A DNA stretch of 64,000 bases from Deltaproteobacteria bacterium (GCA_029262315.1 JAJCZP010000260.1:1980-65979), one strand, 5' to 3'. Counted from the stretch's first letter, positions 36,402 to 40,700 are shown. Made by a program: numbers and translations. Notes: generated by a model not told the origin, from the letters alone.

Positions 36402-37709
36402 ATGGACAAACTCACGAGCCTCTGTAAGCGGCGCGGGTTCGTCTATCCATCGAGTGAGATCTACGGCGGAATTGCCAGCTGCTGGGACTACGGGCCGCTC
36501 GGCATCGAGCTGAAACGGAACATCACCGAGGCCTGGTGGCGCGACAACATCACCGCGCGCGACGACATGGTCGGCCTCGACAGCTCGATCCTCATGCATC
36601 CGAAGGTGTGGGAGGCCTCAGGCCACATCGAGGGCTTCACCGATCCTCTGGTCGACTGCAAGAAGTGTAAGCAGCGGTTCCGCGCCGATCAGCTCGAGGG
36701 CGACGTCTGCCCGGCATGCGGCGGCGAGCTGACCGAATCACGACAGTTCAACCTGATGTTCCGGACGTTCATGGGGCCGGTCGAGGATTCGGCGAGCACC
36801 GTGTATCTCCGCCCCGAGACGGCGCAGGGCATCTTCGTCAACTTCCAGAACGCGCTCAACTCGTCCCGGATGAAGATCCCCTTCGGTGTGGGTCAGATCG
36901 GCAAGTCGTTCCGAAACGAGATCACTCCCGGCAACTTCCTCTTTCGCACTCGCGAGTTCGAGCAGATGGAGCTCGAGTTCTTCGTGAAGCCCGGCGAGGA
37001 CGAGAAGTGGCATCAGTACTGGAAACAGGAGCGCTTCGACTGGTACCTGCGCTACGGCATCAACCGAGAGCGGCTCCGTCTACGCGAGCACGGCAGCGAC
37101 GAGCTGGCGCACTATGCGAAGGGCTGCGCCGACATTGAGTACGAATTCCCGTTCGGATGGTCCGAGCTCGAGGGCATCGCCAATCGTGCAGACTTCGACC
37201 TCGGGCAACATAAGAAGGTCAGCGGCAAGGATCTCTCCTACTTCGACGAGGAGAACCGCGAGCGCTTCATCCCGTACGTCATCGAGCCATCCGCCGGCGT
37301 CGGGCGGCCGTTGCTCGCGTTCCTCGTCGACGCCTATGACGAAGATGTCGTCGACGGCGACGAGCGTGTCGTGCTTCGGCTCGACCGGAGGCTCGCGCCA
37401 GTCAAGGTCGCCATTTTCCCGCTCTTGCGGAAAGCCGGACAGCCGGAGAAGGCACACGCCGTCCGTGATCTATTGAAGCACCACTTCGCAGTGACGTACG
37501 ACCAGGCGGGTGCGATCGGCCGACGCTACCGACGGCAAGACGAGATCGGCACCCCGTACTGCATCACGGTCGACCATCAGACGATGGACGACGACACGAT
37601 AACGCTTCGCGATCGCGACTCGATGGAGCAGCTCCGTCTGCCGATCGATCGCCTGGTCGAGGAGATTCGAACGCGCCTGGCCGCCCCGACGGCGGCCGCG
37701 GGCGGATGA
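36402..37709 (+). CDS. glyQS: Glycine--tRNA ligase (dimeric class II GlyQS)
   Basis: Class II motifs and an anticodon-binding domain. An alternative start lies at 36375. Confidence 0.9.
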   Translation: MDKLTSLCKRRGFVYPSSEIYGGIASCWDYGPLGIELKRNITEAWWRDNITARDDMVGLDSSILMHPKVWEASGHIEGFTDPLVDCKKCKQRFRADQLEGDVCPACGGELTESRQFNLMFRTFMGPVEDSASTVYLRPETAQGIFVNFQNALNSSRMKIPFGVGQIGKSFRNEITPGNFLFRTREFEQMELEFFVKPGEDEKWHQYWKQERFDWYLRYGINRERLRLREHGSDELAHYAKGCADIEYEFPFGWSELEGIANRADFDLGQHKKVSGKDLSYFDEENRERFIPYVIEPSAGVGRPLLAFLVDAYDEDVVDGDERVVLRLDRRLAPVKVAIFPLLRKAGQPEKAHAVRDLLKHHFAVTYDQAGAIGRRYRRQDEIGTPYCITVDHQTMDDDTITLRDRDSMEQLRLPIDRLVEEIRTRLAAPTAAAGG

Positions 37710-40700
37710 TGAGGAGAGGGCAAGTGGCACGTCGAACGCAAGGAAAGAAGCGCCCAGCAACAAAGTCGAAGTCCCGCACGGCCGCGAAGCGCCGTCCCGC
37801 CGCCAAGCGGACAGCCACCAAGGCCACCAAGGCCAGCAAGGCCGGCAAGGCCACCAAAGCCAAAGCGGGAAGCAAGACGAAGTCAGGCCGCAAGACGACG
37901 GGCCGCGCCACGGCGAGCCGCAAGACCGTGAGCCGCAAGAAGACCACGCGACGCGCCGCGACCACCCGCAAGACCGCGAGCCGCAAGAAGGTCGCACGGC
38001 GCACGGTAACTGCGGCGAGCCGCAAAGCTACGAGCCGCGCCGCGAAGTACGTGTACTTCTTCGGCGGCGGCAAAGCCGAGGGGCGTGCCGGCATGAAGAA
38101 CCTGCTCGGCGGCAAGGGTGCGAACCTCGCCGAGATGGCGGGCCTCGGGCTGCCGGTCCCTCCTGGCTTTTCGATCTCGACCGAAGTCTGCACGCACTAC
38201 TATGCGCACGGCAACAAGTATCCTTCCTCGCTGAAGAAAGAGGTCGCCAAGCACCTGGCGCGTGTCGAGAAGGTCGTCGGCCGGACGTTCGGCGACCGGG
38301 AGAATCCGCTGCTGGTCTCGGTGCGCTCGGGCGCACGCGCGTCCATGCCCGGCATGTTGGACACGGTCCTGAACCTCGGCCTGAACGACGAGACCGTTCA
38401 GGGTCTGATCGCGGCGTCCGGCAGTCCGCGTTTCGCGTGGGACTCGTATCGCCGTTTCGTCCAGATGTACGGCGACGTCGTTCTCGGCCTGAAGCCCGAA
38501 GACAACTCGCAGACCGACCCGTTCGAGGACATCCTCGAAGCCAAGAAGCATGCACGCGGCGTCGAGTTGGACACCGATCTCACCGCAAACGACCTGCAGG
38601 AACTGGTCGCCGAGTTCAAGGCACTGATCCTGCGACGCCTGAACGTGGAGTTTCCAGACGATCCCGCAGAGCAGCTGTGGGGTGCCATCGGCGCGGTCTT
38701 TGGCTCGTGGCACAACGCGCGCGCCAACACGTATCGCCGCCTCTACGGCATCCCCGACGAGTGGGGCACTGCCGTCAACGTGCAGGCGATGGTGTTTGGC
38801 AACCTCGGCGATGATTGCGCGACCGGCGTTGCGTTCTCGCGCGATCCCGCGACGGGCGCGAAGCTGTTGTACGGCGACTTCCTGGTCAATGCGCAGGGTG
38901 AAGATGTGGTCGCCGGTATCCGCACGCCGCAAACCCTGACGAAAGCCGCGTCGCAGGAGTTGGCGCGGCAGCAGAGCGTTCCCGAGCACGAGCGGTCGAG
39001 GTCCCTCGAGGAGTTGATGCCGACCTGCCTCGGTCAGCTTCGGAAGATCGCCACCAAGCTCGAGCGCCACTACCGCGACATGCATGATCTGGAGTTCACG
39101 ATCGAGCGTGGACGCCTGTGGATGCTGCAAACCCGGAACGGCAAGCGGACAGCGCCGGCGGCGGTCAAGATCGCGGTCGACATGGCGGGCGAGCGCCTGA
39201 TCGATCGCAACACCGCACTCCTGCGTGTCGATGCTGGCTCGATCGACCAACTGCTCCATCCGATGATCGACCCCACGGCCGACAAGCAATTGATCGCGAA
39301 GGGTGTGCCGGCCTCGCCGGGCGCTGCCGCCGGTGAAGTCGTGTTCAGTGCGGACGAGGCGGAGGCCGCGGCGAACGAGGGTCGGAAGGTGATCCTAGTT
39401 CGGGTGGAGACCTCGCCCGAAGATATCCACGGCATGAACGTCGCCGAGGGCATCCTGACCTCGCGCGGCGGGAAAGCCTCGCACGCCGCCGTCGTCGCCC
39501 GCGGGATGGGCAAGTGCTGCGTGGCGGGCTGCGGCGATCTCGACATTCGCTACGATGGCGGATTCTTCAACGCCGGCGACCATCGGGTGCAGCGCGGCGA
39601 TTGGATCACCCTGAATGGCTCCACCGGCGAGGTATTCCTCGGCAACGTGCCGACAATCCGTCCCGAGGGGGAAACCGGCGAGTTCGCGACGTTGATGAAG
39701 TGGGCCGACAAAGTCCGCCGCCTCCGGGTGCGCACCAACGCCGATACTCCGAACGACGCGGGTGTCGCACGACGCTTCGGCGCCGAAGGCATCGGCCTCT
39801 GCCGCACCGAGCACATGTTCTTCGAGCCCGACCGGATCGAAAAAGTACGTGCGATGATCCTCGCCGAAGATGCTGCCGGGCGCAAAGCCGCGCTCGCCAT
39901 GTTGCAGCCGATGCAGAAGGGCGACTTCGTCGGCATTTTGAAGGCGATGGCAGGACTCCCCGTGACCATCCGTCTGCTCGATCCGCCACTGCACGAGTTC
40001 CTGCCACATAGCGACGAGGATACCGCCGATCTCGCACGGACGATGAACACCGACCTTGGGGATCTGATCGCACGGCGCGACAAGCTGAAGGAGATGAATC
40101 CAATGCTCGGGTTCCGCGGCTGCCGGCTCGGCGTCGTGTTCCCCGAGATATATCTCATGCAGGTCCGTGCCATCATGGAAGCCGCCTGCGAGCTGGCGGG
40201 TCAGGGCGTGAAGGTCTTGCCCGAGATCATGATCCCGCTGATCGGCCACGTGAACGAGCTGAAACAACTACGCGCCGAGGCCGACACCGCCTGCCGCGAG
40301 GTCATCACCAAGACCGGCAAGAAGGTCGCGTATACGATCGGCACGATGATCGAGGTGCCGCGCGCGGCGCTCACCGCCGACGAAATCGCGGGCGAGGCCG
40401 AGTTCTTCTCGTTCGGAACGAACGATCTCACCCAGATGGGCTTCGGTCTGTCACGTGACGACGCGTGGAACTTCCTCCCGCACTACGTCGAGAACGGCAT
40501 CCTCGACGTCGATCCTTTCGCGAGTCTCGATCAGACGGGCATCGGTGAACTCGTCCGAATCGCCGTCGCCAAGGGACGCAAGGTCAAGAAGAACCTGAAG
40601 ATCGGGATCTGTGGGGAACACGGCGGGGACCCGTCATCGGTCGTCTTCTGCCACGAGGTCGGCCTCGACTACGTGTCGTGCTCGCCCTATCGCGTCCCGA

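Follow-up and report, generated by a model that had tools for sequence, protein, structure and literature searches.

A polycationic, predicted disordered N-terminal tail on the pyruvate, phosphate dikinase of Binatia-type bacteria

The Lys-rich, disordered KPAA tails of the Pseudomonas proteins AlgP and PhaF bind DNA, as seen with peptides derived from them (PMC9239181). AlgP also sits on polyphosphate granules, and the even spacing of these granules depends on its tail (PMC9239181), while the PhaF tail binds specific mRNAs via its lysines (PMC12818456). We describe here a tail with several of the same properties on pyruvate, phosphate dikinase (PPDK), encoded at the 5' end of the ppdK gene in a stretch of 64,000 nucleotides from a bacterium deposited as Deltaproteobacteria (GCA_029262315.1 JAJCZP010000260.1:1980-65979). 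This whole stretch, with a base composition of 65.5% GC, is referred to below as the window.

Tails of comparable kinds occur in other settings. Lys-rich N-terminal appendages give eukaryotic class IIb aminoacyl-tRNA synthetases and MetAP2 a non-specific affinity for tRNA or rRNA. In high-GC bacteria, clade-specific, repeat-built Lys-rich tails are carried by housekeeping proteins, namely actinobacterial HupB/MDP1 and topoisomerase I. PPDK itself has an N-terminal extension outside the catalytic body in plants, where it is the chloroplast transit peptide, a cleaved organelle-import signal. To our knowledge, the bacterial proteins that carry basic disordered tails are DNA- or RNA-binding ones and hardly ever enzymes of central carbon metabolism. 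Literature searches turned up no account of a bacterial PPDK with a basic tail, nor did the titles or abstracts of Binatia/Binatota papers mention one. The novelty lies in the host: a tail of a known kind sits on an enzyme where it was not expected, and is fixed in a single uncultured clade.

The PPDK open reading frame (ORF) occupies positions 37706 to 40741 on the plus strand, the frame being open upstream as far as 37469, and yields a product of 1005 amino acids if read from GTG 37724, from which residues are numbered here. By family-membership tests the body of this protein is an ordinary PPDK, with catalysis predicted. It comprises an ATP-grasp nucleotide-binding domain, a phosphohistidine swivel domain and a phosphoenolpyruvate (PEP)/pyruvate TIM-barrel domain, and matches the Pfam models PPDK_N, PEP-utilizers and PEP-utilizers_C with E-values of 1.2e-57, 7.2e-23 and 1.6e-82, respectively. 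The NCBIfam equivalog TIGR01828 scores 1343.9 bits (cut-off 843.45), with residues 108-1003 covering profile positions 2-865. The catalytic phosphohistidine motif GGxxSHAAVVARG is present as GGKASHAAVVARG, with its His conserved. The same three domains make up the Clostridium symbiosum enzyme (1KBL/1DIK) and other canonical PPDKs, in which the core has about 885-900 amino acids. However, canonical bacterial PPDKs begin M-x-x-K-[YW]-V-Y, whereas the PPDK of the window adds 107 N-terminal residues. Indeed, every solved PPDK in the PDB matches it end to end with its own residue 2-4 aligned to residue 106-108 of the window protein. Since both TIGR01828 and the solved PPDKs align only from about residue 106-108, the 107 codons at 37724-38044 are extra. 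The conserved core (KYVYFFGGG...LLGGKGANLAEM) follows, its first residue, K, lying at 38045-38047.

The tail (MARRTQGKKRPATKSKSRTAAKRRPAAKRTATKATKASKAGKATKAKAGSKTKSGRKTTGRATASRKTVSRKKTTRRAATTRKTASRKKVARRTVTAASRKATSRAA) contains 24 Ala, 22 Lys, 20 Thr, 19 Arg, 10 Ser, 5 Gly, 3 Val, 2 Pro and 1 Gln, that is, 21% Lys, 18% Arg, 22% Ala and about 28% Ser/Thr. Leu, Ile, Phe and Trp are absent and there is no Met beyond the initiator. Neither Asp nor Glu occurs, and the net charge is +41, as against -10 for the body. With 14% Asp plus Glu in neighbouring coding sequence, 107 consecutive acid-free residues would arise by chance with a probability of about 1e-7. The repeat units are A-T/S-K and SRK(K)xxRR. 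A first-pass annotation of this DNA had described a K/A/T/R-rich extension encoded by a repetitive tract, and the composition as well as the two in-frame tandem repeats detected by TRF (Table 1) agree with that description. AlphaFold2, run with a 41-sequence alignment (mean pLDDT 81.9, pTM 0.76), gives the core a pLDDT of about 90 and places the first strand from residue 110. For residues 1-105 the pLDDT is 27-36 and the model shows no secondary structure, which predicts an intrinsically disordered tail that runs straight into the first strand of the nucleotide-binding (ATP-grasp) domain.

Five canonical start codons lie in frame: ATG 37706, ATG 37709, GTG 37724, GTG 37928 and GTG 38051, the last inside the KYVYFF of the core. 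None stands directly ahead of the core, as had been remarked earlier; the nearest upstream of the core K at 38045 is GTG 37928. The first-pass annotation had traced the open frame back to ATG 37706 as a candidate start, which does overlap the glyQS stop codon as it stated, and had put the extension at about 110 amino acids. Four orthologous loci (L001-L004) speak to this choice. In the nearest orthologue (L001, protein 91% identical) the sequence reads GAGGAGAGGGTAAGTG, with TAA immediately 5' of the GTG, so that the ATGATG is shut out of the ORF. No ATG is found at the position of the window ATGATG in L002-L004, and there the equivalent GTG (VARRTQ or VASRTR) is the sole in-frame ATG, GTG or TTG from the upstream stop to the core; nor is the core Val encoded by GTG in these loci. 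Purine-rich GGAG-type motifs stand at the equivalent distance in all four, and the gene calls of the corresponding proteins (P0001-P0004) all begin at the equivalent GTG. PPDK in the window therefore most likely starts at GTG 37724, behind a GGAG, and not at ATG 37706. With this start the tail has 107 amino acids rather than 113. More distant Binatia-type loci (L085-L087) use an ATG start behind GGAG and have no start within 15 residues of the core. On this comparative evidence the tail is translated, and indeed must be, because the orthologues L002-L004 and L085-L087 offer no alternative start.

Constraint on the tail as coding sequence points the same way. Three indels (6, 6 and 108 nt) separate the window tail from that of L001. 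Each is a multiple of three, and the last of them corresponds to two extra copies of a 54-nt unit encoding SRKKVTRRTATTASRKAA, of which L001 has about 3-4. Over the 107 aligned tail codons, substitutions fall 17/6/33 on the three codon positions. By the Nei-Gojobori method, the synonymous divergence (dS) is 0.50 in the tail and 0.48 in the core, and the ratio of non-synonymous to synonymous divergence (dN/dS) is 0.22 and 0.036, respectively, the tail value being only rough because the alignment of this low-complexity repeat is uncertain. The GC content at third codon positions (GC3) is 0.80 in the tail and 0.84 in the core, and the synonymous codons of the tail (AAG, GCC/GCG, ACC/ACG, CGC) match the usage of the core and of glyQS. 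Codon usage and periodicity over the tail, which the first-pass annotation had proposed to inspect, are thus those of a gene, and its expectation that at least part of the basic tail is translated was borne out by all these lines. As read from the alignments, non-synonymous change in the tail is suppressed and its composition stays constant, while both its sequence and its length turn over fast through slippage of in-frame repeat units. Gene annotation should place the PPDK start at the GTG and avoid calling truncated N-termini. The tail would also escape tryptic metaproteomics.

Among the 120 best homologues (64-91% identity), those with a name belong to Candidatus Binatia, "Deltaproteobacteria" metagenome-assembled genomes and UTPRO1, and the tail is measurable in 109 of the 120. 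Seventy of the 109 have tails of at least 25 amino acids (median 46, range 26-144). Pooled, these 70 tails hold 3604 residues, with 26% Ala, 22% Lys, 13% Arg, 9% Thr and 8% Ser and a charge of +0.34 per residue; Asp and Glu account for 24 of the 3604 (0.7%), compared to 13.2% in the cores of the same proteins. Subclades share head motifs, namely MARRTQ, MAKSSRGKSKTKS, MAVVRKKKR, MARLQQRKATT and MARAKKLAKGKK, and the remainder of the tails cannot be aligned. Geobacter-type homologues (885 amino acids) begin MxxKYVYFFG. An outgroup sample was drawn from 80 GTDB species-representative genomes of many phyla by exact-peptide patterns, and hence is mostly distant (at most 66% identity). In this sample about 70 PPDKs outside the Binatia type have an ATG 0-4 residues ahead of the core, and basic tails occur only at the Binatia-type loci L005, L006 and L012. 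Comparison of orthologues had been suggested as a check in the first-pass annotation; close relatives turn out to share the extension and only distant phyla start at the KYVY core. Since near relatives are tailed and other phyla start at the core, the distribution indicates that the tail is a derived trait of the whole Binatia-type PPDK clade, which arose with loss of the ancestral ATG before the K-Y-V-Y core.

A second Binatia-type subclade (P0041, P0043, P0045, P0057-P0061 and others) has a 13-14-residue, weakly basic head (MEPQQQNGQGRTT...) and a core of about 929 amino acids, which implies an internal insertion of roughly 30-45 residues in the body.

Searches with the tail alone place it in no known family. 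Among Pfam models, HC2 (E=2.9, 8.4 bits against a cut-off of 40) and Mucin-like (E=0.031, below cut-off) were the only ones to surface, HC2 being the only nucleoprotein model and not significant. NCBIfam and PDB searches gave no significant match. A tail-only search of a set of 5.8 billion proteins returned 162 word candidates, none of which scored, low complexity being a property that defeats such a search. The likeness to AlgP and PhaF lies in long, Lys/Ala-rich, acid-poor, disordered tails built of tandem repeats with mutable copy number. Unlike theirs, the PPDK tail is N-terminal, has 2 Pro in 107 residues, lacks KPAA or S/TPKK units and abounds in Thr, Ser and Arg; its host is a large metabolic enzyme, whereas those of AlgP and PhaF sit on a small helical or phasin domain. 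No sequence relationship to AlgP or PhaF was detected in Pfam or in the 5.8-billion-protein search. Chlamydial Hc1/Hc2 and the C-terminal domain of eukaryotic H1 likewise consist of basic K/R/A/T-rich low-complexity repeats with predicted disorder, but the PPDK protein has no globular winged-helix domain and is an enzyme. The term "histone-H1-like", applied to the extension in the first-pass annotation, thus holds for composition and predicted disorder only, since the HC2 match is insignificant and the tail is poor in proline and rich in Thr, Ser and Arg; sequence kinship to Hc1, Hc2, AlgP or H1 was not found.

With the class IIb synthetases and MetAP2 the PPDK tail shares the arrangement of a disordered polybasic N-terminal extension on a conserved catalytic body. 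Those proteins are, however, eukaryotic and have nucleic-acid substrates or work at the ribosome, while PPDK has no known macromolecular partner. HupB/MDP1 and topoisomerase I differ in that they are DNA-binding hosts with C-terminal tails rich in PAKK/AAKK. The transit peptide of plant PPDK is of very different composition and irrelevant in a bacterium. A Sec or Tat signal or an organelle transit peptide was rejected for the window protein, which has no hydrophobic or amphipathic segment in this region and for which AlphaFold2 predicts no helix there. Compensation for the charge of an unusually acidic core was rejected as well, because tailed enzymes have the less acidic cores (median -4, against -21 in tail-less enzymes; correlation +0.33); in the window protein the tail overshoots, taking the charge from -10 to +31.

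For the most part the tail does not reflect a general habit of the genome. Six frames were scanned for K-rich, acid-poor windows of 30 residues, and about 45 likely genes for basic windows of 20 residues; PPDK stands out by a wide margin. In the window and in four orthologous neighbourhoods of 23 kb, the PPDK tail is, besides a short PurE leader, the sole K-rich, acid-free stretch of at least 30 amino acids at a protein end. A proteome-wide habit of basic tails was accordingly largely rejected, the exceptions among about 45-55 genes of the window being this short leader of PurE and a small patch in an ABC1 kinase (see below).

Residue 585 of the window PPDK (about 39476-39478, plus strand), two before the catalytic His, is Ala and not Thr. 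Among the 120 best homologues this site is Ala in 30, Thr in 78 and Ser in 12, with Ala found mainly in the nearest subclade (P0001-P0028). In plant PPDK, and presumably also in DUF299-regulated bacterial enzymes, the Thr at this position is the one phosphorylated for regulation. Switching off PPDK through Thr phosphorylation is probably impossible in the nearest subclade with Ala.

On the reading that we favour, the PPDK tail would be a polycationic, disordered tether, selected for its composition, that attaches the enzyme electrostatically to a polyanion such as DNA, RNA, polyphosphate or membrane. We regard this reading as about evenly poised between right and wrong. Binding to a polyanion is suggested by the composition of the tail together with the analogy to AlgP and PhaF. 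Selection would act on charge and disorder and not on a fold, and binding of nucleoid DNA, RNA or ribosomes, polyphosphate or anionic membrane lipid would be electrostatic and multivalent. A PPDK dimer, with two +41 tails (about +80), would be held on the polyanion, and the tails could in addition concentrate anionic substrates (ATP/AMP, pyrophosphate (PPi)/phosphate (Pi), PEP) near the nucleotide-binding domain. If the tail does tether PPDK, the PPi/PEP metabolism of these bacteria would be spatially organized. The tail itself, which one globally distributed uncultured class has kept on this enzyme through deep divergence even as its sequence turned over freely, would be a clean case in nature of selection for charge and composition rather than sequence. 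Several points weigh against the tether. The tail fits no DNA-, RNA- or polyphosphate-binding family in any of the searches (Pfam, NCBIfam, PDB and the 5.8-billion-protein set). Its length varies more than 5-fold and some members of the clade have only 13-residue, weakly basic leaders, which makes a strict need for a long tail unlikely. The dN/dS of the tail carries the roughness mentioned above, and the biased composition could partly stem from the repeat-expansion process itself. A more specific version, in which the tail is a dedicated localization device of the Binatia that places PPDK, as a producer or consumer of PPi, on polyphosphate granules, on the nucleoid, or on anionic membrane beside a PPi-using pump, seems unlikely. 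If true, the interconversion of PEP and pyruvate would be linked in space to phosphate-polymer or PPi energy metabolism, and a bacterial core metabolic enzyme would be organized by a histone-tail-like disordered region.

The tail may instead be a tolerated low-complexity appendage: the start moved upstream, in-frame repeats slipped in GC-rich DNA, and the basic product is translated without a specific function, selection removing only harmful variants such as frameshifts and hydrophobic or aggregation-prone residues. Lengths of 26-144 residues, sequences that are not conserved between subclades, repeat copy numbers that differ between 91%-identical orthologues and a tail dN/dS six times that of the core are all as this would predict. 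Yet acidic residues are all but absent (0.7% against 13.2%) from the tails of 70 orthologues whose repeats differ (ATK, SRK, KKKA, AAKP-like), for which slippage of one unit is an insufficient explanation. Moreover, the tail has been kept while cores within the clade diverged to about 64% identity, its dN/dS is far below 1 at a dS equal to that of the core, and neighbouring genes have no such tails. We consider a functionless appendage improbable. It is doubtful, and slightly more so, that the tail acts on the enzyme itself, be it as a solubility aid or entropic bristle, as a substrate antenna or autoinhibitor, or as a charge switch operated by Ser/Thr phosphorylation or Lys acetylation. The tail passes directly into beta-strand 1 of the nucleotide-binding domain, with the GGKGANLAEM loop following some 20 residues on, and its abundant Ser/Thr residues are flanked by Lys or Arg; replacement of the regulatory Thr by Ala in the nearest subclade makes another mode of regulation plausible. 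On the other hand, tails are present both with Thr and with Ala at that site, and in the AlphaFold2 model the tail is not docked on the body, although this is weak evidence.

An effect at the level of the mRNA, with the peptide as a by-product, appears very unlikely. A-rich Lys, Thr and Ser codons would lower 5' structure in this 65% GC genome, or would couple ppdK to glyQS, and such a role would suit the short interval of 14 nt without a terminator between the glyQS stop and the start, the first six residues (MARRTQ) being best conserved among near relatives, and the short Lys-rich leader that PurE of this lineage also has. It would, however, cover 10-20 codons and not 107; the tail is GC-rich at third positions and spelled with ordinary AAG, GCC, ACC and CGC codons, and exclusion of acidic residues is a feature of the protein. 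Least probable, to the point of being nearly negligible, is that the tail is not made and that translation starts internally, at GTG 37928, GTG 38051 or a non-canonical codon near the core. Long spurious ORFs are indeed common here, including antisense ones of 175 and 209 amino acids, and GTG 38051 is available within KYVYFF. But in L002-L004 the stretch from the tail GTG to the core is free of in-frame ATG, GTG or TTG, the core Val is not encoded by a start codon either, and L085-L087 have no nearby start. The in-frame indels, the third-position bias and the dN/dS of the tail argue against an untranslated tail, as does the conservation of the Shine-Dalgarno motif at its head, and a start at 38051 would cost the first strand its conserved K-Y, a pair that all other PPDKs keep.

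Table 1. Positions of ppdK features and of the upstream gene in the window
Feature	Position	Strand	Remarks
glyQS (glycyl-tRNA synthetase)	36375..37709	+	Upstream neighbour, from the ORF list; stop TGA 37707-37709
ATG-ATG	37706..37711	+	Candidate start in the first-pass annotation; in frame, probably unused
Shine-Dalgarno-like GAGGAGAGGG	37711..37720	+	GGAG 37713-37716, 7 nt ahead of GTG 37724
GTG, likeliest PPDK start codon	37724..37726	+	Product begins M-ARRTQGKKRP...
Polycationic N-terminal tail, 107 codons	37724..38044	+	Predicted disordered; outside every PPDK model and structure
9-nt tandem repeat GCCACCAAG, 5.4 copies, in frame	37814..37862	+	TRF; codes for (A-T/S/G-K)n
48-nt tandem repeat, 2.1 copies, in frame	37892..37990	+	TRF; codes for an SRK-rich unit
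Canonical PPDK body and stop codon	38045..40741	+	Pfam, TIGR01828, PDB alignment, AlphaFold2

The window (32743-41746), L001-L004 and L085 share a gene order in which grpE-dnaK-dnaJ occupy one strand and recO-glyQS-ppdK-aroE the opposite one. The glyQS orthologues of L001-L004 have the Pfam domains tRNA-synt_2b and HGTP_anticodon. In close Binatia-type genomes the spacing between glyQS and ppdK is 10-60 nt (14 nt in the window, from TGA 37707-37709 to GTG 37724), and because of this short gap ppdK is probably co-transcribed with glyQS. A scan for promoters and terminators found no promoter-like site and no plus-strand terminator between the two genes, which is compatible with an operon and otherwise uninformative. 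There was no Rfam match over 36300-39000, hence no leader or riboswitch RNA. In the more distant L086 and L087, ppdK is separated from glyQS and the tail is still present. In L087 a gene of the phosphofructokinase family (Pfam PFK; 15166-16263, minus strand) is found some 2 kb away from the tailed ppdK; if it is of the PPi-dependent type, it would suit a PPi-based glycolysis or gluconeogenesis.

Two antisense ORFs run over the tail stretch, at 37470-37997 and 37564-38193 on the minus strand (175 and 209 amino acids, respectively). Arg, Leu, Ala, Pro, Trp and Cys are abundant in their translations, codon-position statistics lend them no support, and they are by-products of the GC-rich, low-complexity repeat.

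Basic segments of other proteins in the window are few and of a different scale. PurE (8475-9038, minus strand), the start of which overlaps the purD stop, has a short basic N-terminal leader (about 8973-9038) ahead of its conserved segment. In 107 PurE homologues the leader has a median of 15 amino acids, with 30% Lys plus Arg and 5.6% Asp plus Glu; the nearest homologue begins at the equivalent of an internal GTG (MKKSSKRTG...). An "AIRC" gene of L001 was rejected as the PurE orthologue, being a different, longer protein of the AIRC family. The ABC1/UbiB-type kinase has an N-terminal patch, at 29500-29721 on the minus strand, that is first Pro-rich and then basic (PPPRKKRRAKTPAAPLASGRARR, RKKRRAK) and is conserved in the nearest orthologue (L001 1500-1727, minus strand). 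Finally, an ORF at about 43460-44230 on the plus strand, with a basic head (PFKMKKQKQATLNLPDQPRWGGRRAGAGRK, 43527-43616), is conserved in L001 (15625-16323, plus strand). The L001 product gives a weak match to Pfam Y1_Tnp, and this ORF, which lies in the same place downstream of aroE, may encode a REP-associated or IS200-like tyrosine transposase.

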